Part shown: positions 25,090 to 58,687 of the stretch, piece after piece | How the letters are laid out: each line of letters opens with the position of its first letter | Numbering within the stretch: position 1 is the stretch's first letter | Origin: an uncultured bacterium | Lineage (GTDB): Bacteria > Patescibacteriota > Minisyncoccia > UBA6257 > 2-01-FULL-56-20 | Direction: 5' to 3' | Assembly: GCA_963719425.1 (NCBI GenBank) | Contig: OY970382.1 | Span: forward strand, 455,100 to 519,099 | Length of the DNA: 64,000 nt | Program-made: the position numbers and the translations under genes | The notes under the pieces: model-generated | The model's database searches: none | What the model was told of the DNA's origin: nothing | Seen by the model: the letters and a program-made list of their open reading frames with translations, nothing else

Positions 25090-25501
25090 TTATTTTGTGA
25101 TGATCTTGCTTTTCACTGGAAGCTTGAAAGAAGCCAAGCGGAGCGCTTCCTTCGCGGTCGCTTCGGGAACGCCGTCAATCTCAAAAAGGACACGCCCGGG
25201 ACGGACCGGAAACACATAGTGGTCCACGCTTCCCTTGCCGCCACCCATCGTGGTCTCGGGCGGCCGGAGCGTGACCGGCTTATCGGGAAACACGCGGATC
25301 CAGAGGCGCCCGCTCCGCTTCAAAAAATTCGTGATGGTCTTCCGCGCGGCCTCAATCTGCCGCGAGGTGAGCCATGCCGCCTCAAGCGCCTTGATGCCAT
25401 ACTGCGCCATACGCAAGCGCAAGGCCGCGCGTTTCAACCTGGCGTTTCCGCGAGCGTCCTTTCTGCCACTTCCTATGTTTTACTTTTTTCGGGATCAGCA
25501 T
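25090..25501 (-). CDS. rplP: 50S ribosomal protein L16, interrupted by an apparent +1 frameshift near codon 18
   Basis: One frame gives [17 protein letters not shown]... Another frame, 1 nt on, gives [39 protein letters not shown]... to the stop. Span is 412 nt (3n+1). Joined product [17 protein letters not shown]|GNARLKRA... matches the canonical L16 N-terminus. Confidence 0.75.
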
Positions 25502-25508
25502 GGTTTAT

Positions 25509-26180
25509 TTATTCGTTCCTTTCTCCTTTATCAAAAATCTCTCCTTTATAGATCCATACCTTGATGCCGATCGTGCCGTAGGTCGTGAACGCGGTCGCCG
25601 TCCCGTAATCAATGTCGGCGCGGAGGGTCTGGAGCGGAAGCGATCCACGCACGAGCCGCTCACGGCGCGCGATCTCGTTCCCATCCAGCCGCCCGGAGAG
25701 AAAAACTTTCGCTCCTTTCACTTCTTTGTTCTGCATCACCTGCTCAATATACTTCTTCATAGTGCGGCGGAAAGGCATGCGCTTTTCCAAATCCCACGCG
25801 ATTTGTTGCGCCACGTACTGCGCCGCGATCTCCGACCGCTTCAATTCCTCCACGTTCACGCTCATAGCGATCGGCGCCTTGTTCTCGCGCACCTTGCGCA
25901 CCGCATCCGCGATCGCCTTGTTCAGTTCTTCCACACCTTTCCCGCCGCGGCCGATGACGAGCCCCGGCCGTGCCGCCTTGATGAAAATGCGCAGGTTGCC
26001 TTGCGTGCGTTCAATTTCCACCGCGGAAATTCCCGCGAGGCCGATTTTTTTTTTGATCACTTTGCGGATCGCCTCGTCCTCTTCAAGATACTTCGCGTAG
26101 CCACCCTTAATGAACCAGCGCACCGGCCAGTTCTTCGTAATTCCCAAGCGATATGAAAGTGGATTAATTTTCTGTCCCAT
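25509..26180 (-). CDS. rpsC: 30S ribosomal protein S3
   Basis: KH domain plus C-terminal domain ('MGQKINPLSYRLGITKNW...GIKVWIYKGE'). Confidence 0.9.
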   Translation of the reverse strand: MGQKINPLSYRLGITKNWPVRWFIKGGYAKYLEEDEAIRKVIKKKIGLAGISAVEIERTQGNLRIFIKAARPGLVIGRGGKGVEELNKAIADAVRKVRENKAPIAMSVNVEELKRSEIAAQYVAQQIAWDLEKRMPFRRTMKKYIEQVMQNKEVKGAKVFLSGRLDGNEIARRERLVRGSLPLQTLRADIDYGTATAFTTYGTIGIKVWIYKGEIFDKGERNE

Positions 26181-26182
26181 GA

Positions 26183-26695
26183 TTATTTGGATGCGCGTGA
26201 TTTCGGATTGAACATCCGCTTGAAGAAGCCCGGCTTCTTACTCTCCACGACTTCCTTCTCCGGCTTCTGCTTTTCACGTTTGCTTTTCTTGGGCCTTTCC
26301 TCTCCGGGCGGCAGTTTCACCTTCTTCGGCACGACAATCTTGTACTTCGGCGTTAGATTTTCATTGAGGCCGAGCACGAGCGTCACGTTGCTCATTTTCT
26401 TTTGGATCGGCGATGCCGAACCGCGCGCGCGCGGCAAATGTCGCTTGAGCATCGGCCCCTGGTCCACGCGGAAATCGGCAATAAAAAGATGATCCGCGTT
26501 CCACCGTTTGTTGTTTTTGGCGTCCGCGACCGCCGAACGCAAAAGTTTGAGGAGCGCCTTTGCCGGCCGGCGGCGCTGTGCCATAAGCTGCGCCTCCGCG
26601 TCGTTCACGGACATTCCCTTCACAAGGTCTGAAACGCTCCGCACTTTCCGTGGCGCGATTTTCAGATAATTCAGTTTTGCGGTTTGTTGTTCCAT
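26183..26695 (-). CDS. rplV: 50S ribosomal protein L22 with a Lys-rich C-terminal extension
   Basis: 'AKLNYLKIAPRKVRSVSDLVKGMSVNDAEAQL' core; ~50-aa basic tail. Confidence 0.85.
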   Translation of the reverse strand: MEQQTAKLNYLKIAPRKVRSVSDLVKGMSVNDAEAQLMAQRRRPAKALLKLLRSAVADAKNNKRWNADHLFIADFRVDQGPMLKRHLPRARGSASPIQKKMSNVTLVLGLNENLTPKYKIVVPKKVKLPPGEERPKKSKREKQKPEKEVVESKKPGFFKRMFNPKSRASK

Positions 26696-26704
26696 GTTAG
26701 CAAT

Positions 26705-27037
26705 TTATTTGGACGGCGCTTTTGCGGCGGCGGCTTGGGCTTTTTGCGTTTCTGCGGCTTTGATTTCCAATTCCTTCTGCATCTTGCCGCCGTGCTTCGT
26801 GAATTTTCGCGTCGGCGAGAATTCGCCCAAGCGATGGCCCACCATCTCCTCCGCTATCTTCACCTCAATGAACGTTTTGCCGTTATGCACGCTGAAGGTA
26901 TATCCCACCATCTCCGGTGCGATCTCCGACGCGCGCGACCACGTTTTAATGGCCGGCGCATTCTCCGGCTTCGCCTTGGAAATCTTTTGGAGAAGCCTTG
27001 GATCAACGTAGGGACCCTTTTTGAGCGAGCGAGACAT
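26705..27037 (-). CDS. rpsS: 30S ribosomal protein S19 with a short Ala/Lys-rich C-terminal extension
   Basis: '[19 protein letters not shown]...[33 protein letters not shown]'. Confidence 0.85.
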
Positions 27038-27053
27038 GGTTCTGGTAAACAGT

Positions 27054-27876
27054 TTACTTCCTGCGCTTCAGGATGAACTTGCTCGACTTTTTCTTCCGAT
27101 TGCGCGTCTTGTGTCCGCCCGTCACTTTGCCCCACAGGGTCTTCGGTTTTCTCGTGCCGCGCGGCTGGCTGCCCTCGCCGCCGCCGTACGGGTGGTCCAC
27201 CGGGTTCATCGCCTTGCCGCGGACGGTCGGCCGGATGCCAAGCCACCGCGAACGGCCTGCTTTTCCGACCGTAATCAAACTCCATTCGGCGTTTGAAACC
27301 TGTCCGAGCGAGGCAAATCCGTCCCATAGAACGCGGCGCACTTCGCCTGAAGACAACTTCAAATCCGTGTACCCGTCGGCATTTGCAAGCACTTCCGCGT
27401 AGGAACCCGCCGAGCGCGCGAGCTGGCCGCCGCGGCCGGGCGTGAGTTCAATATTGTGCACTTGGTAACCGACCGGAATGTTTTTCAATTTCATCCGATT
27501 GCCGGTCTTCAAGGGCGCCGACTCGGCAACGACGATCTCCGTGCCTACCGTCATGCCTTCCGGCGCCAAAAGATATGCGCGCGTACCATCGGCATATTTC
27601 ACGCGCGCAATGAATGCCGTGCGATACGGATCGTATTCCAGGGTCTCCACGATCGCTTTCGCGTTCAAACGGTTCTGCTTGAAATCAACCATGCGGTACA
27701 ATTTTTTGTTGCCGCCGCCCTGGTGGCGCACCGTAATGCGGCCCTGCGCAGTTGCGGCCCGCATTGGACTTCAATCGCTTCAAAAGCGGCTTCCACGGGC
27801 GGACGCCCGAGAGTACCTTGTAATCAGAAGTGGTCATGCTGCGGCGCGATGCGGTTGTCGGTTTATAGCTTTTCAT
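27054..27876 (-). CDS. rplB: 50S ribosomal protein L2, interrupted by an apparent +1 frameshift near codon 40
   Basis: N-terminal fragment [20 protein letters not shown]...KSNAGRN (27685..27876) and C-terminal fragment ...[23 protein letters not shown]... (27054..27764) are in frames offset by 1 nt. Skipping one T (~27751) restores '...[14 protein letters not shown]...'. Span is 823 nt (3n+1). Confidence 0.75.
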
Positions 27877-27888
27877 GGTTTTAGAGAT

Positions 27889-28166: not shown

Positions 28167-28174
28167 GGCAATTT

Positions 28175-28825: not shown

Positions 28826-28847
28826 GAAAATTTCTAATGACGAATTT

Positions 28848-29405
28848 TTAATTCCGGATTTCCAAAAGGCCGCCACGCGCGCCTGGCACCGCACCGCGGA
28901 GGAATATCAAATTTTTTTCTTTGTCAACGTCCGCCACCACAAGATTCTTGATCGTCACGCGCTCCGTGCCCATGTGGCCCGCCATGCGGCGGCCGGGCAC
29001 CACGCGCTGGAACGCGGTGGAGCCGATGGAACCCGGCGCGCGGAAACGGTTCTTCTGCCCGTGCGTTTTCGGCCCGCCGCTGAAGCCGTGCCGCTTCACG
29101 ACACCCTGGAATCCGCGCCCTTTCGTAAGCCCGCTCACGCGGACTTTTTCGCCAGCCGCGAATGCTTCCACCGTCACCGCATCGCCCACCTTGAACTTTC
29201 CCATCTCAATCGGATGCCATTCGCGGTTCCGAAATTCACGCTTCGCTTTCCCAACCGAAACCTGGACGGCTTCATAGCCATCGTTATCTTTACTGCGTAC
29301 CGTAGTCACCTTGTTTGGCTCCGCGTGGATCACGGTCACGGGAATCACCTTCCCGTCCTTCCAGATTTGCGTCATTTTCAGTTTTTTGCCGAGAATAAAT
29401 GACAT
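28848..29405 (-). CDS. rplC: 50S ribosomal protein L3
   Basis: 'MSFILGKKLKMTQIW...VTKGRGFQGVVKRHGFSGGPKTHGQ'. Confidence 0.85.
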   Translation of the reverse strand: MSFILGKKLKMTQIWKDGKVIPVTVIHAEPNKVTTVRSKDNDGYEAVQVSVGKAKREFRNREWHPIEMGKFKVGDAVTVEAFAAGEKVRVSGLTKGRGFQGVVKRHGFSGGPKTHGQKNRFRAPGSIGSTAFQRVVPGRRMAGHMGTERVTIKNLVVADVDKEKNLIFLRGAVPGARGGLLEIRN

Positions 29406-29588
29406 AAAACAAAAATTCCGGTTCTCACCGGAAGTTCATGCGAATACCCGACCGAACCCTGCCCTCAGGCGGGGTCGGTGCTTAAAGAAAACGAAAGACG
29501 TCTTCCGAAGCGCCAAAGCGCGATAGATATTGGCATAAAACTTCCGAGGAAACCTTAGGGAAAGTATAGCAAAACAGGGCCCGCCGTG

Positions 29589-29975
29589 TCAATTGATCGG
29601 CAAAAGCCGGCGTTTAAAGGCGTCGAATTCCTCACGATCCACCTTTTTATCCAATATTTCTATGATGCGTGCGAACCATCCTTCCATCTCGTTTTTAGTA
29701 GGCAACATCGCGATTTTCTGTTCCAAAGCGTCCATACACCCCTCAACTTTATCCAATATCTTGCCGACAGCAATATAGCCTTCCAGAGTTATTTTGAATT
29801 TCGCCTCTGTTTCCTCAAATAAAATCATCATCTTCCGCTGGTCAGCGTCAATTTTATCCGCTTTCACATGTAACTTACTTATCTCCATCCGCATAAGCGG
29901 CAGCTGGGCATCCAGCCGCGCAACCGTGGCCTCCAAATTTTGTTCATCCATGCTCTCATGGTAGTAAACGAACAA
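29589..29975 (-). CDS. Hypothetical protein (128 aa) inserted between rpsJ/tRNA-Asp and rplC
   Basis: Acidic, helical; no recognisable domain. Sits in the S10 operon where rpsJ and rplC are normally adjacent. Confidence 0.4.
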   Translation of the reverse strand: MFVYYHESMDEQNLEATVARLDAQLPLMRMEISKLHVKADKIDADQRKMMILFEETEAKFKITLEGYIAVGKILDKVEGCMDALEQKIAMLPTKNEMEGWFARIIEILDKKVDREEFDAFKRRLLPIN

Positions 29976-30069
29976 AAATAGTCAAAGGTTCTTTAATAAT
30001 TTTTTAATGCACTGCATCACCAAAAACCGCCCCTTGCGAGGCGGTCTTTGGTTTGGAGCCCGAAGGCAT

Positions 30070-30087
30070 CCGGCAAGCTGTCAACTT
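30070..30087. repeat. 18-nt inverted copy of the tRNA-Asp D-arm/anticodon-arm segment (partner 30169..30186)
   Basis: CCGGCAAGCTGTCAACTT is the reverse complement of AAGTTGACAGCTTGCCGG inside the tRNA. Confidence 0.7.
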
Positions 30088-30137
30088 ATCTCCCATTATA
30101 CTCCGATTTCTAACCTTGTCAAACGCCCGCGTCAATG

Positions 30138-30208
30138 TGGACTGGCGGAGAATCGAACTCCGAACTACAAGTTGACAGCTTGCCGTGATACCCTTTCACC
30201 ACCAGCCC
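30138..30208 (-). tRNA. tRNA-Asp (anticodon GUC) candidate; acceptor has a G3:U70 pair
   Basis: rc = GGGCTGG TG GTGA AAGGGTA TCAC G GCAAG CTGTCAA CTTGT AGTT CGGAG TTCGATT CTCCG CCAGTCC A; all stems pair (G-U at 27:43 and 3:70). Confidence 0.5.
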
Positions 30209-30278
30209 CATTGACCGGTGAATTCTAGCAAGCCGCCGATTAAATCTCTCTAAAAAAACTCTCGCGTGGACGTTTTCG

Positions 30279-30608
30279 TTAGACCATTTTCACTTCCACA
30301 TCCACCCCTGCCGGTAAATTCAAATTCGTGAGCGACTCAATAATCTTCTGGCTCGGATTCAGGATCTCCACCAGACGCTTGTGCACCCGGAGCTCAAACT
30401 GTTCGCGCGAGTCCTTATGCACGAACGTGGAACGGTTCACGGTGTAGTGCCTGATCTCCGTGGGTAGCGGAATCGGACCGTTCACCTTCGCGTCGTTCCG
30501 TTCGGCGGTCTCAATGATCTGGCGCGCCGAATTGTCAATCAGCTTGTGGTCGTAGGACTTGATCCGCAACCGGATTTTTTGCGGCGTTTCCGATTCCTTC
30601 TTTGCCAT
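30279..30608 (-). CDS. rpsJ: 30S ribosomal protein S10
   Basis: '[43 protein letters not shown]'. Confidence 0.9.
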
Positions 30609-30609
30609 A

Positions 30610-31809
30610 TTATTTGACGATCTTCGTAACCGCTCCTGCGCCTACGGTGTGGCCGCCTTCGCGAATGGCGAAGCGCTGCTTGTCCTCAAGCGCAACGGGG
30701 GAAATGAGTTTCACCGAGAGCTTTACGGTGTCGCCCGGCATCACCATCTCCATGCCCGAGGGCAGGGTCACCTCGCCGGTCACGTCGGTCGTTCGGATAT
30801 AGAACTGCGGCTTGTAGCCCGAGAAGAACGGCGAGTGCCTCCCGCCTTCCTCTTTGGAAAGCACGTACACCTCCGCCTCAAATTCCGAATGGGGCGTGAC
30901 GGTTCCCGGCTTCGCAATCACCTGCCCGCGCTCAACGTCCTCTTTCTTCAAGCCGCGGAGCAAGGCGCCGATGTTGTCGCCCGCCATGCCCTCATCCAAA
31001 AGCTTATTGAACATTTCGATGCCGGTGACGACGGTTTTGGTCGTGGGTCGCAAACCGACAATCTCCACCTCTTCATTCACTTTCACTTTTCCGCGCTCCA
31101 CGCGACCGGTGACAACCGTACCGCGGCCTTCAATAGAGAAGATGTCTTCAATCGGCATAAGGAACGGCTTGTCGACGTCGCGGACCGGCGTCGGGATATA
31201 ATCATCTAACGCTTTGATAAGATCAAGGATCGGTTTTGCGTCCGGGTCATCCGGAGATTTCACGTTCAATGCTTTCAACGCCGAACCGCGAATGACCGGC
31301 GCGTTGTCGCCGTCAAAATGATATTTTTTCAGGAGTTCCCGCACCTCGGATTCCACGAGATCAATCAATTCCGGATCATCCACTTGGTCGCACTTGTTCA
31401 AGAACACCACGATCTTCGGCACGCCCACCTGATACGCAAGCAGGATGTGCTCGCGCGTCTGCGGCATCGGCCCGTCCGTTGCGGCGACCACAAGTATCGC
31501 GCCGTCCATCTGGGCGGCACCCGTGATCATGTTTTTGATGTAGTCCGCGTGCCCCGGCGCGTCAATGTGCGCGTAGTGGCGCTTTTCCGTGGAATACTCG
31601 GAGTGGTGCAATGCGATTGTGATACCGCGTGCCTTTTCCTCCGGCGCGTTGTCGATCTGATCAACGCCCTCTTCTTTCTTAGCCAGACCCTTCATAAACA
31701 AAATGTGTGTGATCGCGGCGGTCAAGGTCGTCTTTCCGTGATCCACGTGGCCGATCGTCCCCACGTTCACGTGCGGCTTGGACCGGTCAAATTTTTCTTT
31801 TTCTGCCAT
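30610..31809 (-). CDS. tuf: Elongation factor Tu
   Basis: '[34 protein letters not shown]', '[26 protein letters not shown]', 'NKCD'; internal Met start chosen. Confidence 0.9.
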
Positions 31810-31957
31810 GGATTTTTGTGAAGTTTTGATTAAATTTATTTGTAACGATGCCCTTTCACTTCGCGAAAAAGCAATAGCCAATCGACCTAAAACGCTCCTT
31901 CACGAAGGATGACAAAAACCATTGTACCCCTATGCCCCCCGCGCGTCAAATCCATTC

Positions 31958-32269
31958 TTAGACTTTTTTAATCCTAACTTCCGCATATTGCTGTCGATGT
32001 CCCTTTTTTTTGCGGAACCGCGTTTTGGAATGATACTTAAAGACGATCTTTTTTTTCTCGCGCCCCACGCCGAGCAATTCCGCTTCCACCGAAGCATTCG
32101 TAAGGTAAGGAGCGCCGATCGTGACGCGGCCGTCCTCGGACCGCAAAAGCACCTTATCAAAAACCATGGCGCCGCCTTCGGCGCTTGTCTTTTCTATTTT
32201 TAATTTCTCCCCGGCGGAAACCTTGTATTGCTTCCCGCCGGTTTGAATCACCGCGAAGTCCTGTGCCAT
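31958..32269 (-). CDS. rplU: 50S ribosomal protein L21
   Basis: 'MAQDFAVIQTGGKQYKVSAGEKLKIEK...KIVFKYHSKTRFRKKKGHRQQYAEVRIKKV'; internal Met start. Confidence 0.8.
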   Translation of the reverse strand: MAQDFAVIQTGGKQYKVSAGEKLKIEKTSAEGGAMVFDKVLLRSEDGRVTIGAPYLTNASVEAELLGVGREKKKIVFKYHSKTRFRKKKGHRQQYAEVRIKKV

Positions 32270-32273
32270 ACTA

Positions 32274-32624
32274 TCAATTAACGCTAATGATAGCCGCAAA
32301 ACCGATAAAAAGCAAGATGGCGAGGACGAGGGTGACTGCGGCGGCACACTTCCCCAAAAAGCGGCTTCTTTCTTCAAGCTCAAGCGCGATAACGAAATTC
32401 ATGATGACAGCTGCGATCCCAAACGCTGCGATAAAGACGAAATTCGCCGGCGTGCCGACGGCAGTGATTCCCTCAAGATCGTTGTAATGAAGAATCACGG
32501 GAGAACTCAAGGCGGTGATATGCAACGCAAGGCGCGACCACAAGGCGCCGCCCATCACAAAAAGAAGCGCCGCAAGCGACATTAGACTGACCTCCTTGTG
32601 CTTGAGTATTTTCTTCCACATCAT
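32274..32624 (-). CDS. Hypothetical small membrane protein (3 TM helices)
   Basis: Hydrophobic segments; no motif. Confidence 0.4.
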   Translation of the reverse strand: MMWKKILKHKEVSLMSLAALLFVMGGALWSRLALHITALSSPVILHYNDLEGITAVGTPANFVFIAAFGIAAVIMNFVIALELEERSRFLGKCAAAVTLVLAILLFIGFAAIISVN

Positions 32625-33634
32625 GATCCCGATGATGATCCAGCCCTCTCCCCCCGCAGCACCGCGGCAGCGGCGTCCGGCGGAACGACGTTGATATTCA
32701 CGATGGTGGAGATCTCAAATCCTCCCGGAGGAGAAATCACATCCACCGGCACGACTTCAATGTGCCAATGATGATAAGGATATTTGCGGCCATCTACGGG
32801 GGCGTCGTGGATAAAGAAATTGAGGTCCGGATCGTGGAGATGCTTCTTCATGCGGCGCATCACGGACTGCAACAGGCGTGCGACATCCGCAAGCACCGCA
32901 CCTGGGGTTTCCGCGAAGTACGGCGCGTGGCGCCGCGGAAGAATGCTCACTTCAAAGGGACGCTTTGCCGCATAGGGAACGAACGCGATTGCGTGGCGAT
33001 TCTTTGCTACCATCCGCACGTTCGCCTTTTGCTCCCCCGCGACGATGTCGCAGCGCACACAACGGCCGTGCTGCTTGAAATACCGCAGAGCGCCATGAAG
33101 GGACTTCATGGCGTGTGGAGGGATAATCGGGAGCGCGAGGATCTGATAGTGGGGATGCGAAAGCGAAGCGCCCGCTTCCCTCCCCCAATTAAAGAACGTG
33201 GAAACGTACGCGCTGCACGCATCCTTCGCAATCACCCGATATCGTTCCCGGATTACCGTAAAGACATTGCACGCTTCCCGGGCAGTGAGTTCCGCGAAAT
33301 TTTTCCGATGGTCGCGGGTGACAACAATCTCGTGATCTCCCACGCCGGTCTTTCCGCGATACAAACCCCGGGAAATATCCGCAGCGCAACGCGCGCCATG
33401 CGCGAGCGCAGGATATTTATTGTGGATGATGGCGATCTTCCAGTGCGCTTCGTCGGGATACATCGCAATCGGCGGCCAGTTTCCGGATTTTTTCAGATCC
33501 TCAAACGGGCACCCGCGCATGGGCGATATCTCGCGCGGTCCTCTGCGCTTCAAAAGGTCTTCCGGACGCTTGGCGCGCCCGGGTGCAATAATGGTCCAAT
33601 CGCCGGAAACAGGGTCTTCGTGGAACTCGCTCAT
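32621..33634 (-). CDS. galT: Galactose-1-phosphate uridylyltransferase (HIT-superfamily GalT)
   Basis: 'CPFE' Zn site and 'SHPHYQILALP' HPH active-site motif; two-half GalT architecture. Confidence 0.75.
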   Translation of the reverse strand: MSEFHEDPVSGDWTIIAPGRAKRPEDLLKRRGPREISPMRGCPFEDLKKSGNWPPIAMYPDEAHWKIAIIHNKYPALAHGARCAADISRGLYRGKTGVGDHEIVVTRDHRKNFAELTAREACNVFTVIRERYRVIAKDACSAYVSTFFNWGREAGASLSHPHYQILALPIIPPHAMKSLHGALRYFKQHGRCVRCDIVAGEQKANVRMVAKNRHAIAFVPYAAKRPFEVSILPRRHAPYFAETPGAVLADVARLLQSVMRRMKKHLHDPDLNFFIHDAPVDGRKYPYHHWHIEVVPVDVISPPGGFEISTIVNINVVPPDAAAAVLRGERAGSSSGS

Positions 33635-33640
33635 AAAAGA

Positions 33641-35569
33641 TTACGGGGTCGCGGCATTCGCGCGCGCGATCCTGTTCCAATAATACCAATTGAGAATGTC
33701 TTTCGCTATCGGCACCGCGTTCAGGCTTCCTTCTTTTGAATTCTCTATAAGGATAAGGATGGACACCTGCGGATTCTTGCACGGCATATAGCCCACAAAG
33801 AGCGCGTTCTCCTGCTGGTTGTTCGCTACTTGCGCGCTGCCGGTCTTCGCGCACGCGTCAATTGGCAAATCGTGCAATGAATACGCCGTCCCCTGCGGCG
33901 ACGTTACCCCTTCCCGCATCCCCTGCTGCACTTCTTGTATCTGCGGAAGAAGCCCCGTGAGGTCCTCCGAAATCTGCGGCGTGGAAGCGGCGTTTAGGAA
34001 CGGCCGGTAAATTTTCCCGCCGTTGCCGATGGCGCCGATATAATCCAAAAGTTGGAGCGGACTCACGAGCAGGTCTCCCTGCCCAATGGAAACATTGTAG
34101 GTGTCGCCAAGGAGCCAGGGCGTTCCCAAGCGTTTCTGCTTCCAGTCCGGCGTAGGCAGGAACCCGTCCGCTTCATTCGGCATATCAATGCCGGTCGGTC
34201 TCCCGAGGCCGAACATTTCCCACCATTGATACAACCGACTAATGCCGAGGCCCGAAATGCCGTAATCGCTCGGGTCATTCAAAAGCGGCGTGCTTGCCGG
34301 CGGCGACCCGCCTCCCACGACATAGAAATACACGTCCGACGATTGCGCGAGCGCGGATGCCAAGTCCACGCTTCCTTGATAGCGCCAATCCAAGTACCGG
34401 CTCGGCGTTGAGGAATTGTAGGGATTCGGCACAAGGAGATAGCCAGGCGAAAAAATGGTGCGTTGCGGGTCAATCACGCCTTCTTTGAGCGCCGCGACCG
34501 CGTCCAAGGGCTTCACGGTGGAACCGGGATTGTAAAACCCGCCGACCGCCCGATTGAAAAGCGGTTTGTCGGAGGAAGAAAGCAAACGCGATATCTCCGC
34601 CGCCGCCCCGCCGGTGCCGGACTGCGAGAACACATTATCGTCAAAACCGGGAAGATTGATGAGTGAAAGCACTTCGCCTGTCTGCGGATCTATTGCGAGG
34701 CCCACGCCCACGGTTCTCCCGAGCGACTGTAAACCGCTTGCGAGGCGCGAATAGAGGTACGACTGCAGCCCTCCGTCGATCGTAAGATGAAGCGAGCCGC
34801 CGACCTGCGGTGTGGACTGTTGTTCCTCGCGGAGCAACGTGCCCTGCGCGTTCCGGTATTGCACCGTCACTCCCGGCTTCCCGCGCAGGACATCGTCGTA
34901 GTACGCCTCAATGCCCATTTTCCCGATAAAGTCGGCATTGCTTAAAGATGGATCTGCCTTTAAATCGTTTTCGCTCACGCGACCCGTATAGCCGACAACC
35001 GAAGAGAACACAGGCCCTTGGGGATAGTCGCGTATGAATTCGTTCTCCACTTTGATCGTCGTGAGGTTCGCTGCTTGGAGATTCACAAGCTCGTTCTGCG
35101 TAAGGTTCTCCGCAAGAACGACCGGCGTCGCGAAATCCTGCGCGACGGCCTGATTCACAAGGTTTGTGAAATCGTGGAAAGTGATACCGAGCACGCTTTG
35201 CGCGATGCGCGCGGTATCTGCGCGAAGCGACTCGTCATTCACGTATGCGCGCGTGTCAAGCACCGCCGCGAATGCCGCCTTGCTTTCCGCAAGCACATCG
35301 CCCTCGCGATCGTAGATCGCGCCGCGCGGCGCCAGCGCCATTTCGTATTCCGCCACGTTGTCTTCCGCACGCGCCGCGTAATACGCGCCGCTTGCCCAAT
35401 TAAGATAGACAATCCGCGCCGCGACCGCGAGCGCAATGCAAAAAACGATTATCCCAAGCCAGAAGAACGGCCGGTGCCCGATGGGAACCTCCGCCACGTC
35501 CAAATCGCGGCTCCAGTCGTCGTTCAACGAATCTTCAAACGCAACCTCGCGGAAACGATCCTGCCTCAT
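33641..35569 (-). CDS. mrdA: Penicillin-binding protein 2 (elongasome transpeptidase)
   Basis: N-terminal TM + dimerisation domain; transpeptidase motifs STVKP ('PGSTVKPL'), SxD and KTG ('KTGSAQV'); follows mreBCD. Confidence 0.85.
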   Translation of the reverse strand: MRQDRFREVAFEDSLNDDWSRDLDVAEVPIGHRPFFWLGIIVFCIALAVAARIVYLNWASGAYYAARAEDNVAEYEMALAPRGAIYDREGDVLAESKAAFAAVLDTRAYVNDESLRADTARIAQSVLGITFHDFTNLVNQAVAQDFATPVVLAENLTQNELVNLQAANLTTIKVENEFIRDYPQGPVFSSVVGYTGRVSENDLKADPSLSNADFIGKMGIEAYYDDVLRGKPGVTVQYRNAQGTLLREEQQSTPQVGGSLHLTIDGGLQSYLYSRLASGLQSLGRTVGVGLAIDPQTGEVLSLINLPGFDDNVFSQSGTGGAAAEISRLLSSSDKPLFNRAVGGFYNPGSTVKPLDAVAALKEGVIDPQRTIFSPGYLLVPNPYNSSTPSRYLDWRYQGSVDLASALAQSSDVYFYVVGGGSPPASTPLLNDPSDYGISGLGISRLYQWWEMFGLGRPTGIDMPNEADGFLPTPDWKQKRLGTPWLLGDTYNVSIGQGDLLVSPLQLLDYIGAIGNGGKIYRPFLNAASTPQISEDLTGLLPQIQEVQQGMREGVTSPQGTAYSLHDLPIDACAKTGSAQVANNQQENALFVGYMPCKNPQVSILILIENSKEGSLNAVPIAKDILNWYYWNRIARANAATP

Positions 35570-35585
35570 CGGTTCTTAGCATACG

Positions 35586-36023
35586 CTAATCCCTGTCCCA
35601 TCGGTAGAGCAGGAAGAAAACGCACGTGCCGAAAAGCCAACCCGCCGCGAGATCCGGCAAAAATAGCCGCCACGATGCGAGGAGCGCCGCGGGCGCAGCC
35701 GCGACGACAAGCGTAAGGAAACCGAGGAAGATCGCGACGAGGTTGAGAAACCACGGCTGTGAGCGGAACGCATCGCGCAAAAAAAAGACTGCAAAAGGAA
35801 ACAGTGCAGACACGAGTATCTCCGGACTCACGGCCGGCTGCCAGTTGATGATAAAAACCGCGGTGAGGGCAAGGAATGCCAGCTCCCAAAATCCGAACAC
35901 GAACGCGAATGCAATGAGCGTGGCGAAAGAAAAATCAAGATACACGTTCGCCGCGGCAAGCGAGAACTGGAGCGCAAGCGCGATGAGCAGGAGCACGAGG
36001 CCGGCGAGCAGTTTTAGGGTCAT
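35586..36023 (-). CDS. mreD: Rod shape-determining protein MreD
   Basis: Polytopic small membrane protein immediately after mreC. Confidence 0.6.
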   Translation of the reverse strand: MTLKLLAGLVLLLIALALQFSLAAANVYLDFSFATLIAFAFVFGFWELAFLALTAVFIINWQPAVSPEILVSALFPFAVFFLRDAFRSQPWFLNLVAIFLGFLTLVVAAAPAALLASWRLFLPDLAAGWLFGTCVFFLLYRWDRD

Positions 36024-36688
36024 CGGGCGATGGCAACGACTTGCATGCTGTTCTCGTCGTAGGCGAACGTGAGGGCCGCTTCTTCAAAAAGGTTGTCCGC
36101 GGATGTGCTCGTGCCTTGGACAACGGCAACCGGAAGTCCGTACGGCAATCCCTCCGCCGCGGCATAGACGATATCGCCCGCATGCACCGCCGCGCCTTTC
36201 GCCATGGAAACAACTGAGGGAGATGCGCCGCCTGTGAGCAGGCCGTCATTCCCTGCCGCGCCGACGCGCACCGGTATTTTGAAATTGCCATCAAACACCG
36301 TCCGAACGAGCGAAGAGTCAGGGAACGTTCTTAGGACGACGCCGACGAGGATCCCCTGGAACACCACTGCCCTGCCCTCCGCGACGCCCTCATTCGCACC
36401 CGCATCAACAAGAAATTCGTTTTTGAAATTAAAAGGGTAGCGCGAATACACCATGGCGGAAAGGTACGCGGGCGAGGAACTGGGCAATTGCGCGGCGACG
36501 CGCGCGAGCTGTGCAAGCTCGGCTTTCAACTCCTCGTTTTCCGCGACGAGAACGCTGCTCTCCGCCTGGGGCGCCGCAAGAGGACTGAGCCACGCCCGCA
36601 CCCGCGCGCCGTACTGCGGCGCAAGAAACACAAGCACGATTAAAATGACGATGCATACTACGAGAGACCATCCGTCACGCTTCTTCAC
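36020..36688 (-). CDS. mreC: Rod shape-determining protein MreC
   Basis: N-terminal TM + coiled coil (AESSVLVAENEELKAELAQLAR) + beta-rich C-terminal domain. Confidence 0.75.
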   Translation of the reverse strand: MKKRDGWSLVVCIVILIVLVFLAPQYGARVRAWLSPLAAPQAESSVLVAENEELKAELAQLARVAAQLPSSSPAYLSAMVYSRYPFNFKNEFLVDAGANEGVAEGRAVVFQGILVGVVLRTFPDSSLVRTVFDGNFKIPVRVGAAGNDGLLTGGASPSVVSMAKGAAVHAGDIVYAAAEGLPYGLPVAVVQGTSTSADNLFEEAALTFAYDENSMQVVAIAR

Positions 36689-36700
36689 ATTAGAAGAAAA

Positions 36701-37744
36701 TTAAAGGTTGATTGACAAGGGTTTCAAGGGATTATCCAAAAGTTCGCGGTGGGCTTCAAAATTGTCCACCATCTGTCCCAGGCCGCGCGCAACGCAGGTC
36801 AGCGGATCCTCCGCGATGTGGACCGGAACGCCGGTCTCTTTTTCCAAAAGCTCTCCAAGCCCCCGGAGGAGTGCGCCTCCGCCGCAAAGCGTGATACCCT
36901 GCTGAAGGATGTCCCCCGCAAGCTCCGGCGGCGTTTCCTCAATCACCTCCCGCACCGCCTCCACCACAGTGTGGATGGATTTTGCAAGCGCCACACGCAC
37001 ATGATTGTTTTTCAAACTGATCTCGCGCGGCAAACCGCTCGTGATATCGCGGCCGCGAATCGGCACTTCTAACCGCTCGTCCATCGGCACGGCTGACCCC
37101 ACCGCGATCTTTGCGAACTCCGCCGTCGGCTCGCCGATCGCCAAGTGAAACTCGTCGCGCACGAAATGCATGATGTCTTCGTTAAACCGATCGCCCGCCA
37201 ACTTGAGCGTCCGCGCGACCACGGTGCCTCCCATGGAAATGACCGCGACATCAGTCGTGCCGCCGCCGACGTCCACGATCAGGCTCGCAACGGGAGCCAT
37301 GATGGACAAGCCCGCGCCGAGTGCCGCCGCCGTGGGCGATTCCACAAGATACACTTTTGAACACCCGGCATTGAGCGCCGCATCCTCCACCGATTTCCGT
37401 TCCACTTCCGTCAAATTGTTCGGGATCGAGAGGATCGCCCGCCGGTACGATGTGATCGGACTCGCCTCGCGCCTCCGCAAGAAATGCCGCAGCATCTCTT
37501 CCGTCATTTCAAAATCGGAGATCACGCCGTTCACGAGCGGCCGCACCACATTGATGTGCGCAGGCGTCCGGCCGAGCATCTTCTTTGCTTCGTCGCCCAC
37601 CGCGAGAATATGGCTCGTCTTTGTATTCACCGCCGCGACCGATGGCTCGTTCACTACGATGCCCTTTCCCTTTAGATAGATAAGGGTATTAGCCGTCCCG
37701 AGGTCAACGCCGATGTCTTTGAAAATGTTATTGAAAAAAGCCAT
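36701..37744 (-). CDS. mreB: Rod shape-determining protein MreB (actin homolog)
   Basis: 'IGVDLGTANTLIY', 'LIVDVGGGTTDVAVISMGG', 'ITLCGGGALLRGL' ATPase motifs. Confidence 0.9.
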   Translation of the reverse strand: MAFFNNIFKDIGVDLGTANTLIYLKGKGIVVNEPSVAAVNTKTSHILAVGDEAKKMLGRTPAHINVVRPLVNGVISDFEMTEEMLRHFLRRREASPITSYRRAILSIPNNLTEVERKSVEDAALNAGCSKVYLVESPTAAALGAGLSIMAPVASLIVDVGGGTTDVAVISMGGTVVARTLKLAGDRFNEDIMHFVRDEFHLAIGEPTAEFAKIAVGSAVPMDERLEVPIRGRDITSGLPREISLKNNHVRVALAKSIHTVVEAVREVIEETPPELAGDILQQGITLCGGGALLRGLGELLEKETGVPVHIAEDPLTCVARGLGQMVDNFEAHRELLDNPLKPLSINL

Positions 37745-37755
37745 TGTTCCTGTTT

Positions 37756-39036
37756 TTAGTTTCCAGTTTCAGATAATTTCTTCGTCACTTCTTTGATATC
37801 CATAATCTTTGTGCTATCTCCGCCGCGCTGCTTGACCTCAATTTTTGTGCCGAGCTTGGGACTCACGACCAGGCGCCACGGGATGCCGACGAGGTCTGCT
37901 TCCGCGAACTTTTCTCCCGCGGAAAGGTTCCTGTCGTCATAAAGTACTTCAATTTTTTCCTTCTGTAAAGCGCGGTACGCCTCATCGCCACGAGCACCGT
38001 TCAAGGCAAGGAGATGCGCGCGGAACGGAGCCACATTTGCGGGCCAGACAATGCCATTTTTGTCGCTCATAACCTCCACAATCGCAGCCATCACACGACC
38101 AAGCCCGATGCCGTATGACCCCATCACCACGTACTTTTTTTCCCCTTTTTCGTCAGCAAATTGAAGGTTGAACGCCTCGGAATATTTCGTGCCGAGCGGA
38201 AAAATATTGCCGACCTCAATCGCCTTCTCTTCGCTTATGCCGGCGCCGCACCTCGGACATTTACCGTGAGCGTTGAGTTTTGAAATCTCCTTGTTCTCCG
38301 CATACTCGCATTTTTTGCAGAGATAAATCGTGTCTTCGCCGACGGCCGCGACCACCTGGAACTCGTGCGTGTTCGTAGCAGTGAACTCGCCGCCGGCGGC
38401 GAGCGTGTAATACGCCTTCAAACCGCACCGCGCAAAGATCTTTTGATACGCTGTTGCCACGCGGTCGTAATACTTGAAGAGGTCCTCCTCCGATGTATGG
38501 AAACTGTAGAGGTCCTTCATCAAAAACTCGCGGCTCCGCAAAAGCCCCGACTTCGCGCGCGGCTCGTTCCTAAACTTCGTTTGGATCTGGTACGCCGCGA
38601 ACGGAAGATCTTTATAGGAACTGATGTACTTCGTGCCGATCTCCGCCATGATCTCCTCGTGTGTCCAGCTGATGTTGAATCCAGGCTCTTTTTCGCCGGC
38701 ATCCTTTCCACCCGAGACCACTTTGAATACCACGCCGACGTCCCAGCGTTTCGTCGCCTTCAAATAACGCTTGTCGTGCAGCGCCGCCATAAAGAGTTCC
38801 TGGCCGCCGATCGCGTTCATCTCCTCGCGGATGATCCCCGCAATCTTCTGGATCACTCTCCAGCCAAGCGGCAGGAATGAGTACACGCCCGCAGAATTTT
38901 TATAAATAAACCCGCCGCGCGTGAGGAGCTCGGCGTTCAGTGCCGTCTCATCCTTCGGCGCAGCCCGCGATACCTTCGTGAAAAGCTCCGACTGGCGCAT
39001 TACCCATAGATTATCACCGAACCTTCCGGTTGGCAA
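37756..39036 (-). CDS. proS: Prolyl-tRNA synthetase (short, archaeal/eukaryotic-like type)
   Basis: Class II core with Pro-RS-specific blocks; C-terminal anticodon-binding domain; 426 aa. Confidence 0.8.
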   Translation of the reverse strand: MPTGRFGDNLWVMRQSELFTKVSRAAPKDETALNAELLTRGGFIYKNSAGVYSFLPLGWRVIQKIAGIIREEMNAIGGQELFMAALHDKRYLKATKRWDVGVVFKVVSGGKDAGEKEPGFNISWTHEEIMAEIGTKYISSYKDLPFAAYQIQTKFRNEPRAKSGLLRSREFLMKDLYSFHTSEEDLFKYYDRVATAYQKIFARCGLKAYYTLAAGGEFTATNTHEFQVVAAVGEDTIYLCKKCEYAENKEISKLNAHGKCPRCGAGISEEKAIEVGNIFPLGTKYSEAFNLQFADEKGEKKYVVMGSYGIGLGRVMAAIVEVMSDKNGIVWPANVAPFRAHLLALNGARGDEAYRALQKEKIEVLYDDRNLSAGEKFAEADLVGIPWRLVVSPKLGTKIEVKQRGGDSTKIMDIKEVTKKLSETGN

Positions 39037-39351
39037 AATAATCAGCCCTTTTCTGCTTTTTCTCTAAAGTTGGTTTTATCAATGCTATGTTTTTCCATAA
39101 TTATCGCAATCCGGCTCTTAGAATCTTCAATAGCCGCCTCGACGATTTGCCGGAGATCAGCCCTCAATTCTTCTCTTTCCGATTGTTCCATTACGACCAA
39201 CATAGCATACGGGTGATTAAAATTATATAAAAAAATTGTTAAATTTTCCTTAAAAACTATTTGACTTTTGAAACGCTCTCTCTATCCTGAAAGTAGGTTC
39301 CTGCCTCAGGAATAAGAAGTAATTCTTACTCTTAGATTTCGACCCTACCGG

Positions 39352-39410
39352 GGCGACACGTTCATTTCTTATTTGTCGACGAATAAGAAATGAATCAGGA
39401 ACGTGTCGCC
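39352..39410. terminator. Imperfect palindrome/hairpin downstream of proS
   Basis: GGCGACACGTTCATTTCTTATTTGTC-GAC-GAATAAGAAATGAA(tcagga)ACGTGTCGCC. Confidence 0.4.
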
Positions 39411-39742
39411 TATCCAACGGTTGAGGCCACCACCCTACCCCGCCCGATCGTCTTTTTTCCGCGGGGAGGGTAAACTACATAAGAACCAAGCTCCAAGCAT
39501 CTGCCCCTGAAGGTCAGAAAGCCGCCGTGCACTGCGGGCGCCAATCGAAAGGTTGATGGTCAATGGGAGGATCGCTCATCCGAGCGTGGCGTCTCCCCAG
39601 AGGCAGATTCTTGGAGCTTTTTCTTTTGGAGCGCTTTGATATCTCTTGGACTGCGCGAAAACGCCGTTATTATTTCCCTCAATGATACTATGCTGTGATC
39701 TACCCAATGAATCAAAAACAGTTGTGATACAATCATCCTATT

Positions 39743-40225
39743 ATGAGACAGACAGCAAAAATATTAACGTTTCTGGGCTTATTGGGATTTCCGCTTTTAA
39801 CTTTTGCCGATCTGATAACCCCGTCCCCGGCCGAAACGATCGGTTCAATTCTTATATTTTTTGTTATAAACCTAGTTGTTAATTCAGTAATTATTTTTGC
39901 ACTTATTTCTCGCGACCGATTTAAAAAGTTGTTTCGCGGACCTTCTCTCTTAAAGATCCTGCTCGTAACCGCCCTGGGTCTTGTCGCTGACTTTATCGGA
40001 ATTCTTTGCGTGTCACTACTCTATACCTCTGATTTTACTCTTGGCCCTCTTTTAATTTTGGGTTTCATTATATGGATTTTAGTCGCTCTGAATTTCTATT
40101 TGATTTATTCCAGAGAGATATCCGACCAGAAAAAAACAAGGATAATAAAAGCAATCGTCTTCGGATTTATCAGCAATCCTTTTTGGCTAAGCTTGCCAGC
40201 CTATCTGGCTTCTATAAGACGCTAG
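39743..40225 (+). CDS. Hypothetical membrane protein (4 TM helices)
   Basis: Hydrophobic profile only. Confidence 0.45.
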   Translation: MRQTAKILTFLGLLGFPLLTFADLITPSPAETIGSILIFFVINLVVNSVIIFALISRDRFKKLFRGPSLLKILLVTALGLVADFIGILCVSLLYTSDFTLGPLLILGFIIWILVALNFYLIYSREISDQKKTRIIKAIVFGFISNPFWLSLPAYLASIRR

Positions 40226-40254
40226 CGAGAGAGCTTTTTCGTATTCATAAAAAG

Positions 40255-40281
40255 GTGCACGGGCCTGGACGATTTTCGAAC
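40255..40281 (+). repeat. Dispersed 27-bp motif copy GTGCACGGGCCTGGACGATTTTCGAAC
   Basis: Solo copy followed by a GGGGAGGGAG...CTCCCTCCCC hairpin. Confidence 0.65.
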
Positions 40282-40554
40282 TCACCTCTTGGCGATGCGA
40301 GCACAATAAAAAAAGCCCTTCTTGAGGGTCATTAAGGTTTCTTGTGGGGAGGGAGACACGATCTTTCATTTCCTCCCTCCCCAAAGACTTACCATCGGCG
40401 GTGATCAGTCGGAGTTCAGGGCCACGTCACTTCGCTTCATTCCCGTACGGCCGTTGTGCTTCTTCATGAGACACCTCGGTTTGTCATTTTGACGTCGGCA
40501 CTATCTTCCCCGTGCCACTTAATACAATAATGTCATTCTAAACCGCCGTTAAAT

Positions 40555-40581
40555 GTGCACGGGTCTGGACGATTTTCGAAC
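40555..40581 (+). repeat. Dispersed 27-bp motif copy GTGCACGGGTCTGGACGATTTTCGAAC (end of cassette B)
   Basis: Identical to the copy at 5366..5392. Confidence 0.7.
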
Positions 40582-40677
40582 ACTTCTCTCCAAGCCTCAA
40601 TTCGCAATGAGTTTGTGAATTTAGGCTTGAAAGGCAGGAGTGCAGACGAGGTGTCCGAACCCCTGCCTTCCGTGGTT

Positions 40678-40917
40678 TTACTGCGAGGGCCGGAGGGAGA
40701 GGCCCAACTTGGCAAGTCCCCCCTCAAGGTCGGCCAGCATTCCCTTTGTCATCCGCCGCGCTTGCGGGGTGTCTCGCTGCAACTCATCCCTCGTGAGCTT
40801 AACAACGTCCCCAATGGTCACGATGTTCCGGGCCCGGAGGTTGTTGTAAGTGTTGACGTTGAGATCAGCGAGTTCCTCGATGGCTTGATCGAGGATTTCT
40901 TGTTTTGATGCTTGCAT
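40678..40917 (-). CDS. Second copy of the small alpha-CTD-like protein (identical to 5030..5269)
   Basis: Identical 79-aa sequence. Confidence 0.5.
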   Translation of the reverse strand: MQASKQEILDQAIEELADLNVNTYNNLRARNIVTIGDVVKLTRDELQRDTPQARRMTKGMLADLEGGLAKLGLSLRPSQ

Positions 40918-41000
40918 TGCCTTAACCTCGTTTCTGTGGATCGTCCCACGCCTCTCATCTGTAGAATATTGTATCACTATCGAATGACGATGTAAAGACC

Positions 41001-41027
41001 CTGCACTGGCCTGGACGATCTTCGAAC
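41001..41027 (+). repeat. Dispersed 27-bp motif copy CTGCACTGGCCTGGACGATCTTCGAAC (flank of cassette B)
   Basis: Sequence family match. Confidence 0.65.
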
Positions 41028-41122
41028 AATTCTGGCTTTCAGCCGAAAACGGGCCTGTTTTGCTAGCAGCTTGACGTAAATCATTTTAAATCCTAGAATG
41101 CACCCAGAAACGGAGGTTTTGT

Positions 41123-41539
41123 ATGCTGAGCGGAGAATGGGACAGACTAAAAACACTGGAAGAAAGACGGCGCTTTCGGATTAGGGAGCAAGCGTACTTT
41201 CTCTCCACCCACCGAGAGAAGGAAGGTCGACCCCCCGACCCCGAGAGAGACTGGCTGAACGCCGAGTGGATTGAAGATAATCTGGAAACCTATTGCGGAC
41301 TGGAGCGAGACGTGAACTGGGCCATGAGCCGCGTGGGCGGGGGAGACAGGAGCTGGATGACTCCTTTTTCCTGTTTGCGTGCGCACGGAGAGACACAAGA
41401 GCAGCTCTCGGCCGCACTGGCCGTTGTAGTAACCGTGTTCACCTCGAAGCTTGATGTCGCAAGGGCTGTCAGTCAATCAAATACCTTCGCGGGGCTCATG
41501 GAGGAACTTGTCACGCAAATCCGTTGCAATTCACACTAG
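41123..41539 (+). CDS. Hypothetical protein with an N-terminal DUF2934-like motif
   Basis: 'RIREQAYFLSTHREKEGRPPDPERDWLNAE' resembles the DUF2934 consensus (..YELWE.RG.P.G.D..DWL.AE). Confidence 0.4.
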   Translation: MLSGEWDRLKTLEERRRFRIREQAYFLSTHREKEGRPPDPERDWLNAEWIEDNLETYCGLERDVNWAMSRVGGGDRSWMTPFSCLRAHGETQEQLSAALAVVVTVFTSKLDVARAVSQSNTFAGLMEELVTQIRCNSH

Positions 41540-41603
41540 GTTCGTTGATCGCCCCGCGACAATGCGAAAATCCCGCATTTGCTATCGCGGGGTTTTCGTT
41601 TTT

Positions 41604-41625
41604 CGTGCACAGGACAGGATTCGAA
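41604..41625 (+). repeat. Dispersed motif copy, short form GTGCACAGGACAGGATTCGAAC
   Basis: Matches the short-form copy at 4925..4946. Confidence 0.6.
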
Positions 41626-41693
41626 CAAAAGAAAAAGGCTGGCGCGTGATATTGGTTTTCCTGAGCATCCCAGGAAGATAACCAAGGTCGAAT

Positions 41694-41806
41694 AAAAGAC
41701 CCACATTTGGTTTTGAGGGGCATCTCGGAGCCGCGAAGGCGGCAAGAGCGAGGCGCGCTCCGAGCACGGAGCGACGCCGTCCCCGAAAGACCAAATGTGG
41801 GTCTTT
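41694..41806. terminator. Long stem-loop immediately downstream of the fusA stop codon
   Basis: 18-bp perfect stem AAAAGACCCACATTTGGT ... ACCAAATGTGGGTCTTTT enclosing ~77 nt of GC-rich sequence. Confidence 0.45.
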
Positions 41807-43913
41807 TAGCGTTTCTTCCCTTCTATAATCAGCTGCGCGATGTTCGCGGGCGTCGGCTCATAGTGGTCAAATTCCATAGTGAACGAACCGCGCCCCTGCG
41901 ACATTGAACGGAGCTCCGTCGCGTAGCCGAACATTTCGGAAAGCGGGACTTTCGCGTCAATCACTTTCAATCCCGGCCGGTCGCCGAGCGCTTCAATCCG
42001 ACCGCGCTTCGAATTCAGTTGTCCCGTCACCTCACCCAAAAAGTCCGGCGGCACGAGCACCTGCAATTTCATGATCGGTTCCAAAATGACAGGCTTTGCG
42101 CGCTTCGCGGCTTCCTGAAACGCGATGGAACCCGCAATCTTGAACGCCGCTTCTGAAGAGTCCACTTCGTGGAACGAACCGTCATACAACGTGACCTCAA
42201 CGTCCGTCACCGGATAGTGCGCGAGAATGCCTTTGTCCAACGCCTCCTTGACGCCCTTCTCGGTCGCCGGGATGAATTCCTGCGGGATCACGCCTCCTTT
42301 AATTTCGTCCAGGAACACAAATCCCGTTCCGCGCTGAAGCGCTTTCACGCGCAGCCAGACATGGCCGTACTGACCGCGGCCGCCGGATTGGCGGATATAT
42401 TTCCCTTCTGCTTCCGCCTCGCCCATGATCGTCTCCTTGTACGCCACCTGCGGCCGGCCGACGTTCGCTTCCACGCCGAACTCGCGCTTCATGCGGTCTA
42501 CAATGATTTCCAAGTGCAGCTCGCCCATGCCGGAGATAATCGTCTCGCCCGGTATCCGGATCCCCCGCCACGCGGAAGGTCGGGTCCTCCTCGGCGAGCC
42601 GGTGCAGGGCCGTGCCCATCTTTTCCTGGTCAGCTTTCGTTTTCGGTTCAATGCGAATACCAATCACGGGTTCGGGGAAGGTGATCCTCTCAAGCACAAT
42701 CGGCGAATCGGGATCGCAAAGCGTATCCCCCGTCGTCGTATTTTTCAGGCCGACAATCGCCGCGATCTCGCCTGCATAGACCTCTTCCACTTCTTCGCGA
42801 TCGTTCGCGTGCATGCGAACCACGCGCCCGATGCGCTCCTGATTGTCCTTAGTCGAATTTAAAACATACGAACCGCGCTTCAAAACGCCGGAATAATTCC
42901 GGAAATACGCGAGCGTGCCGACGTACGGGATCGGTCGCGATCTTAAACGCAAGCGCCGAGAACGGTTCATCGTCCTTCGCCTGGCGCGTGATTTCCGCGC
43001 CTGTTTTCGGATCGTGACCTTTGACCGGCGGCAGGTCCGTCGGCGCCGGCAGATACTCCACAACAGCATCCAGCATGAACTGCACGCCTTTGTTCTTCAA
43101 GGCCGAGCCGCAGAAGACCGGCACGATTTTGTTCGCGATGACTGCCTTGCGCAGCACGCGGCGAAGATCCTCAACGCCGATCTCCTTTCCGTCCAAATAT
43201 GCCGCCATCGCGTGGTCGTCATTCTCCGCGATCTTTTCAATTAATTCGTGGCGGCGCTTCGCAATGTCTGCCTTCATCTCGTCCGGGATCGGAATCTCTA
43301 CGATTTTTTCGCCATGCTCGCCTTCAGACCCGAACGCCTTGTTCAAAAGCAGGTCCACAATACCCTTGAAATTCGCCTCAAGACCGATCGGCAGCTGCAC
43401 CGGGATCGCGTGCGGCGTGAGCCGGTCAAGGATTGATTGAAAACTCCCCGTAAAGTTCGCGCCCATGCGATCAAGTTTGTTGATGAAACAGATGCGCGGC
43501 ACGTTGTATTCGTCCGCATAGCGCCAGTTCGTCTCCGACTGCGGCTCAACGCCCGCGACGCCGTCAAACACGACGACCGCGCCGTCCAAAACGCGGAGCG
43601 ACCGCTTCACTTCCACCGTGAAGTCAATGTGCCCCGGCGTGTCAATCAGATTGATGCGATGCTCGAACTTTTTGTCGTGGTTGCGGTAGGTCGGCGTCCA
43701 GAACGCGGTCGTCGCGGCCGAGGTGATCGTGATGCCGCGCTCGCGCTCCTGCTCCATCCAATCCATGATCGTGTCGCCCGTGTGCACCTCGCCGATCTTG
43801 TGCGAAACGCCAGTATAAAAAAGCACCCGCTCGGAGACGGTCGTTTTACCGGCATCAATGTGCGCGATGATTCCAATATTCCTTACCTTTTCTATCGGGT
43901 ACTGCCTAGGCAT
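41806..43913 (-). CDS. fusA: Elongation factor G, interrupted by two apparent +1 frameshifts
   Basis: Three consecutive ORFs cover EF-G domains: G' (42849..43913), II-III (42299..43069) and IV-V (41806..42663). Frame switches sit at ...AFKIATDP|YVGTLAYF... (~42925-42930, CCC run) and ...RVAGDPDTG|[12 protein letters not shown]... (~42548-42560, GGGGG/CCGGG runs). Total span is 2108 nt (3n+2). Confidence 0.8.
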
Positions 43914-46649: not shown

Positions 46650-46712
46650 AGTTATAAATCTTCGCCGCCATCGGCTCTTGCGCGGGTGAGCGCAAAACAA
46701 ATTCCATTTGTA

Positions 46713-47131: not shown

Positions 47132-47168
47132 TGCTTTTTAGCCTACCACAATATCCAAAGTTTGGATA

Positions 47169-58684: not shown

Positions 58685-58687
58685 ACG

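Follow-up and report, generated by a model that had tools for sequence, protein, structure and literature searches.

Single-base frame breaks in rplP, rplB, rplW and fusA of a Patescibacteria contig, very probably consensus errors of a long-read metagenome assembly

The stretch of DNA analysed here (the window, 64,000 nucleotides [nt] of contig OY970382.1) comes from an uncultured member of the Patescibacteria (Minisyncoccia) and has a GC content of about 54%. Its spc and S10 ribosomal protein operons lie on the minus strand from about 19.6 to 30.6 kb and are followed, in order, by tuf, rplU, a galT-like gene, mrdA, mreDCB and hisS, with fusA-rpsG-rpsL placed at 41.8–44.8 kb. Of the minus-strand genes, rplP, rplB and rplW fall into two frames each and fusA into three. 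The genes and the five sites at which their frames break are listed here in plus-strand coordinates of the window, with lesion sequences written on the coding (minus) strand; L001 and L002 are loci of relatives described below.

25090..25501, minus strand: rplP (ribosomal protein L16), one extra base; repaired product 136 amino acids (aa)
25402..25403, minus strand: rplP indel site; extra A or G in GGC GC[AG] TAT, needing +1; a relative reads GGC GCC TAC
27054..27876, minus strand: rplB (ribosomal protein L2), one extra base; repaired product 273 aa
27749..27750, minus strand: rplB indel site; extra T or G in AAC [TG]CG CAG, needing +1; gap against L001 and L002
27889..28166, minus strand: rplW (ribosomal protein L23), one base missing; repaired product 92 aa
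27964..27965, minus strand: rplW indel site; A missing, needing -1; relatives GCGAACATA, window GCGACATA
41806..43913, minus strand: fusA (elongation factor G, EF-G), two extra bases, three frames; repaired product 701 aa
42927..42930, minus strand: fusA indel site 1; extra T, or one C of a C3 run, in GA[T]CCCG, needing +1
42547..42552, minus strand: fusA indel site 2; extra G of a G3 run, or the adjacent C, in ACCGGGC, needing +1

Five single-base breaks in these four genes had been claimed in an earlier note on this DNA, and three-frame translation of the minus strand, the raw sequence and nucleotide alignment to intact orthologous loci all bear this out, as they do the number and direction of the shifts (+1 in rplP, rplB and twice in fusA, and -1 in rplW). 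Four of the lesions are one-base insertions and one is a one-base deletion. In the nucleotide alignments each site shows exactly one gap of a single base, and the coding regions that could be compared are otherwise free of gaps that break the frame. The gap at 25403 is the only one within rplP relative to L001 and lies outside any homopolymer; the earlier note had put this site at 25447–25452, about 45 nt off, and had placed the rplB, rplW and both fusA sites correctly. At the rplB site the relatives read AAC GCG CAG or AAT TCG CAG and the window AAC TGCG CAG, likewise with no homopolymer, and at the rplW site GCG AAC ATA in the relatives corresponds to GCG AC ATA in the window (AA to A). The gap at fusA site 1 falls at 42930 against two relatives (L003 and L008, below), which have GAC CCx TAC where the window has GAT CCC G TAC. 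At fusA site 2 it falls at 42550 against L003 and at 42552 against L008, with ACC GGC GAG in a relative and ACC GGG C GAG in the window. A codon-usage frame scan follows fusA from frame -2 to -0 to -1.

The contexts of the breaks agree only in part with the earlier suggestion of a homopolymer-prone platform. Neither the rplB nor the rplP site is in a homopolymer, the other three are in runs of just 2–3 bases, and the G5 run to which fusA site 2 had been assigned (42562–42566) lies outside the indel. Long A-runs in the affected genes are correctly read, as for example an A6 run in rplB.

Relatives of the contig were found by an exact-protein look-up with S10, and then by scans with the PBP2 protein. 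The S10 look-up led to an 898,885-bp contig (ERZ25039512 contig_54891 = OY970175.1, of the metagenome-assembled genome [MAG] MFD03726.bin.c.4; L001), which is syntenic at about 90% nucleotide identity and in which L23 (92 aa), L2 (273 aa) and L16 (136 aa) are intact. A second locus of the same MFD chromosome, L003, reaches fusA, and nucleotide identity over L001/L003 is about 89–90%. The other relatives are Minisyncoccia bacterium SPRUCE 501 (L002/L030, about 89% nucleotide identity) and a Paceibacterota MAG (L008/L041, about 79% in fusA). Comparison with orthologous contigs of this kind had been proposed as a check, and its outcome is clear: these three relatives have the genes as single intact open reading frames (ORFs), with a one-base gap falling exactly where each break of the window lies, and by nucleotide alignment they lack all five indels. 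Truncated forms of EF-G (354 aa), L2 (236 aa) and L23 (68 aa) are found in a public protein collection on one contig each, and this is the same single 887,956-bp contig, held in NCBI and ENA, so that the frameshifts belong to the record as deposited and recur in no independent assembly.

When one base is deleted at each of the four insertions and one A is added in rplW, the repaired ORFs have 136, 273, 92 and 701 codons, exactly the orthologue lengths, and the codon alignments are without gaps, in keeping with the earlier claim that joining the frames at one position restores full-length proteins. Repaired L16 is 97.8% identical to its L001 orthologue, repaired L23 is 91–92% identical to the 92-aa L23 of the relatives, and repaired EF-G is 95.4% identical to that of L003 and 83% to that of L008, all ungapped; for repaired L2, 18 of 274 aligned codons differ from L001 and 20 from L002, the protein being 273 aa in both. 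Pfam domains become complete as well. Ribosomal_L16 is matched over 1–132 of 132 positions after repair versus 23–132 in the raw ORF, and Ribosomal_L23 over 3–85 of 86 versus 3–63, with L2_N (1–76 of 77) and L2_C (1–126 of 126) matched in repaired L2 and all five EF-G domains complete in repaired EF-G. With the raw fragments, the profile matches stop and resume at the breaks: of EFG_III, for example, positions 1–44 are in one fragment and 44–74 in the next.

Codon differences downstream of the breaks, counted in the repaired frame, are as follows.

rplP: 27 synonymous versus 3 non-synonymous
rplB: 62 synonymous versus 13 non-synonymous
fusA, middle segment: 46 synonymous versus 4 non-synonymous
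fusA, C-terminal segment: 83 synonymous versus 9 non-synonymous

As the differences are mostly synonymous, the four genes have been kept intact across about 10% divergence from the relatives. Judged by these codon comparisons, the repaired frames are under purifying selection, with no sign of decay downstream of the breaks, and on the same evidence the breaks, unless they are extremely recent, are not real. Pseudogene formation or gene decay was considered and is ruled against by the strong synonymous excess, and there is no second copy of the genes in the window.

The earlier note had also warned that other truncated or extended ORFs could be artefacts; in the window this was not borne out, as no further split gene is detectable by alignment, codon-usage scan or Pfam. 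Alignment to relatives over 23.4–39.7 and 41.8–44.9 kb reveals no further frameshift in the covered genes (hisS, mreBCD, mrdA, the galT-like gene, rplU, tuf, rpsJ and the other covered ribosomal protein genes are clean), and the S14 gene and both adk genes are intact when checked by eye. The codon-usage frame scan picks up the fusA switches only, and Pfam searches with 30 further ORFs return essentially complete domains. A shorter C-terminus of mrdA (PBP2) was examined as a candidate frameshift and rejected, being natural tail variation.

Two further contigs were reached through the protein clusters to which the truncated products belong, L082 (ERZ25039519 contig_64787) and L083 (ERZ25039529 contig_86209), whose ENA assembly accessions adjoin that of the close relative, ERZ25039512. 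In L082, S12 and S7 are fused, EF-G is broken into at least three pieces and EF-Tu into two, and there are over a dozen one-base insertions relative to L003, several of which lie outside homopolymers; L083 contains an L23 fragment and an L2-S19 fusion. Insertions predominate among the one-base indels of L082, as they do in the window. Related genomes thus show errors of this class too, more densely and at other positions. The one-base indels are many in both contigs; in L082 they are located at 2932–8170, in rpsL, rpsG, fusA and tuf, and in L083 at 1–2310, in rplC, rplD, rplW, rplB and rpsS, and the fused or fragmented gene calls of both are present in public protein collections. The two fusA sites of the window have L082 indels 14 and 19 nt away, a proximity that is not significant by our own estimate, L082 being indel-rich.

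We are confident that the four insertions and the one deletion are single-base errors of the consensus, made when this Patescibacteria (Minisyncoccia) genome was assembled from long metagenomic reads; in the organism itself rplP, rplB, rplW and fusA are most likely intact. The preference of the earlier note for assembly indels over programmed frameshifting is therefore upheld, by the intact genes of the relatives, the restriction of the lesions to a single contig, the purifying selection, the lack of a recoding signal or shared motif and the errors of the same class in the related contigs L082 and L083. Microflora Danica, the data set that includes the closest circular relative, was generated with Nanopore reads only, Flye assembly and one round of Medaka (PMC12313526), and the contig of the window presumably came from the same workflow. 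The errors would have arisen in read pile-ups of modest coverage or of mixed populations. In a metaFlye assembly of an R10.4 mock community about 4 indels per 100 kb were found, with frameshift errors being more frequent in Oxford Nanopore Technologies soil data (PMC13087279), and residual indels persist below about 40x coverage (PMC9262707). Five or more indels in 64 kb are of the same order of magnitude and so compatible with the published rates.

A possible reading of the insertions is that at each of them the consensus gives both alleles of one position, one after the other: GCA/GCG, GAT/GAC, GGG/GGC and TCG/GCG. Three of these four pairs are synonymous wobble alternatives, and for the fourth both alleles are found in relatives. 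A consensus caller might write both alleles at a polymorphic or mixed pile-up column, and allele stacking of this type is a possible, not an established, mechanism of error (P about 0.05 by our own estimate).

Several observations weigh against consensus error. All five breaks are in translation genes and they are clustered, as two pairs of sites 214 and 380 nt apart plus one single site (P about 0.03), which random noise would not predict. Part of the bias toward translation genes is ascertainment, because breaks are recognisable only in well-known genes, and within the region open to unbiased comparison the enrichment is not significant (P about 0.09, our own estimate from rough gene lengths). 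The support for allele stacking is marginal at the value given above, the errors are deduced and not directly seen, and the platform and coverage of the contig are assumptions based on its relatives and on the databases in which it is deposited. Classical Nanopore errors fall in long homopolymers, which these indels do not, and local nucleotide conservation at the sites is not unusual, so that cross-mapping of foreign reads is not favoured. A concentration of errors in the most conserved stretches, as such cross-mapping would give, was considered specifically and is unsupported, with local 60-nt identity at percentiles 50–93.

Another explanation is that the frameshifts are genuine and very recent, present in the sampled population as nascent pseudogenes or in a defective sub-lineage that dominates the consensus. 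The deposited sequence does carry the indels, and the lack of decay downstream of the breaks would also fit extremely recent events. However, L2, L16, L23 and EF-G are universally essential, and a reduced genome of about 0.89 Mb would have had four essential single-copy translation genes disrupted simultaneously, with no second copy in the window and no lesion common to any relative; moreover, errors of the same class occur elsewhere in related contigs with adjoining ENA accessions. We regard recent mutation as improbable. Transcriptional slippage, which rescues frameshifts at poly(A) tracts in insect endosymbionts, is to our knowledge the only way other than recoding for frameshifted essential genes to stay functional, but nothing specific speaks for it here: the five sites are free of A or T homopolymers (their longest runs, made up of G or C, are 3 nt), the genome has about 54% GC and the indels are not conserved in relatives. 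It is the least credible of the explanations considered, and we give it almost no weight.

Programmed ribosomal frameshifting (four +1 events and one -1) or some other recoding would yield full-length L16, L2, L23 and EF-G from the sequence as deposited, and it is to its credit that joining the frames at one point gives perfect proteins and that CCC_G at fusA site 1 and GGG_C at fusA site 2 would permit re-pairing of the P-site tRNA in the +1 frame. Such re-pairing is impossible, though, at rplB (AAC) and rplP (GGC/GCA), and in three independent relatives the genes run through all five positions without interruption. The +1 sites have no in-frame stop and no CUU UGA C-type site, the zero frame continuing for about 6 to over 100 codons beyond them, and no Shine-Dalgarno (SD)-like element is found at the spacing of 3 nt that +1 shifting requires; GGGGGA, the sole G-rich element, lies 10–11 nt upstream of fusA site 2. 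The -1 site in rplW (CGG TTT GGC GCG ACA TAA) has no X XXY YYZ heptamer. Nor do the sites have a common motif beyond chance: three 6-mers, GCGCAG, CGCGAC and TGGCGC, are each common to a pair of sites (P = 0.27 by simulation), and a shared motif or methylation-type context was rejected on the same count. A GCGC near three of the five sites (P = 0.018) was likewise set aside, as it was picked post hoc among many 4-mers and, as we read their contexts, is not repeated at the independent L082 insertions. With neither signals nor conservation in the relatives, programmed frameshifting is therefore unsupported and, in our judgement, very improbable. The related proposition that the indels are real and are accommodated by efficient, lineage-specific +1 and -1 recoding at non-canonical sites, for example by a frameshift-tolerant translation apparatus, we consider just as improbable.

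If the breaks are consensus errors, as we think, they have no biological significance and are an artefact of a known kind, useful as a quality flag for the record. The damage in the window is limited to four genes as far as detectable. These genes, fusA, rplB, rplP and rplW, are standard phylogenomic and completeness markers, so errors in them can distort marker placement, completeness estimates and protein clustering, a distortion that concerns Patescibacteria genomes derived from long reads only. By way of this record truncated EF-G, L2 and L23 products have already been contributed to public databases.

The surroundings of the affected genes have features of their own. About 10 kb separate fusA from tuf-rpsJ (window 30610–43913), with rplU, the galT-like gene, mrdA, mreDCB and hisS in between; the separation is similar in the relative L003, whereas fusA, tuf and rpsJ are adjacent in the more distant L082. 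The tuf-fusA interval also holds a 2.7-kb stretch of weak coding signal that includes one copy of a 461-nt inverted repeat. The two copies of this repeat (4932–5392 and 40555–41015) are 35 kb apart with only 4 mismatches, and each encodes a 119-aa ORF with a weak match to the RNA polymerase alpha C-terminal domain. The pair flanks dnaE and the entire spc/S10 region, such that a large inversion could be mediated. Within that region, the rpsJ-rplC junction is a variable spot (window 29405–30279; L001 10330–14437), occupied in the window by a tRNA-Asp (30137–30208) and a 128-aa ORF (29589–29975; coiled-coil-like by eye), and in the 90%-identical relative by hisG, an IS481-type transposase and four small ORFs instead.

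Beyond rpsL, a tRNA-Ala (45082–45155) is followed by a large serine recombinase gene on the minus strand (ORF 45147–46844; domains Resolvase, Recombinase and Zn_ribbon_recom), which is flanked by perfect 124-nt inverted repeats (45150–45273 and 46713–46836) starting with the tRNA 3' end CCACCA. Abutting this unit is a cassette of 42% GC that encodes a trypsin-like peptidase (47207–48535) and an AbiU2-type HEPN protein (48549–49193), flanked in turn by near-perfect 299-nt inverted repeats (46833–47131 and 49252–49550) that start at GTGGTG, overlapping the reverse complement of the CCACCA motif. The island as a whole (45082–49550) has no match in L003 and may be an integrated element with invertible cassettes. 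Further along, 141-nt tandem repeats, up to 99% identical, lie within an 811-aa ORF (56249–58681), and related modules are found further along the same ORF and also in a later one (59963–61657); the stretches concerned are 56380–57350, 58080–58390 and 60070–60330. The ORF between the two (58685–59731) has a pilin-type N-terminal methylation motif. The products are likely to be variable surface proteins.

Among known systems in which a gene is read across a frame break, the endosymbionts Buchnera and Blochmannia have frameshifts at poly(A) tracts that are rescued by transcriptional slippage. The window resembles them in having frameshifts in essential genes of a small genome, and differs in its GC-rich composition and in that its sites are without poly(A) or poly(T) tracts. 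A -1 shift would be needed in rplW, as in dnaX or insertion sequence (IS) elements, but the context CGG TTT GGC GCG ACA is without X XXY YYZ, and the relatives have one A more. The programmed +1 shift of prfB (release factor 2) resembles what the window would require, a +1 shift within an essential gene for a translation factor or ribosomal protein; unlike prfB, the window has no CUU UGA C-type codon plus stop, no correctly spaced SD-like stimulator and no conservation in orthologues, and five different sites in four genes would be required. Consensus indels that split ORFs are what the IDEEL test measures and what proovframe and similar tools correct. The lesions are atypical of Nanopore or other long-read consensus indels in that homopolymers are absent at two sites and 2–3 bases long at the other three, and in that four of the five are insertions. 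They are like them in being single-base changes that split ORFs into adjacent frames, such that a one-base repair restores the length of the orthologue, in being unique to one assembly while related contigs are hit at other positions, and in having a density of the same order as the published metaFlye R10.4 figures.

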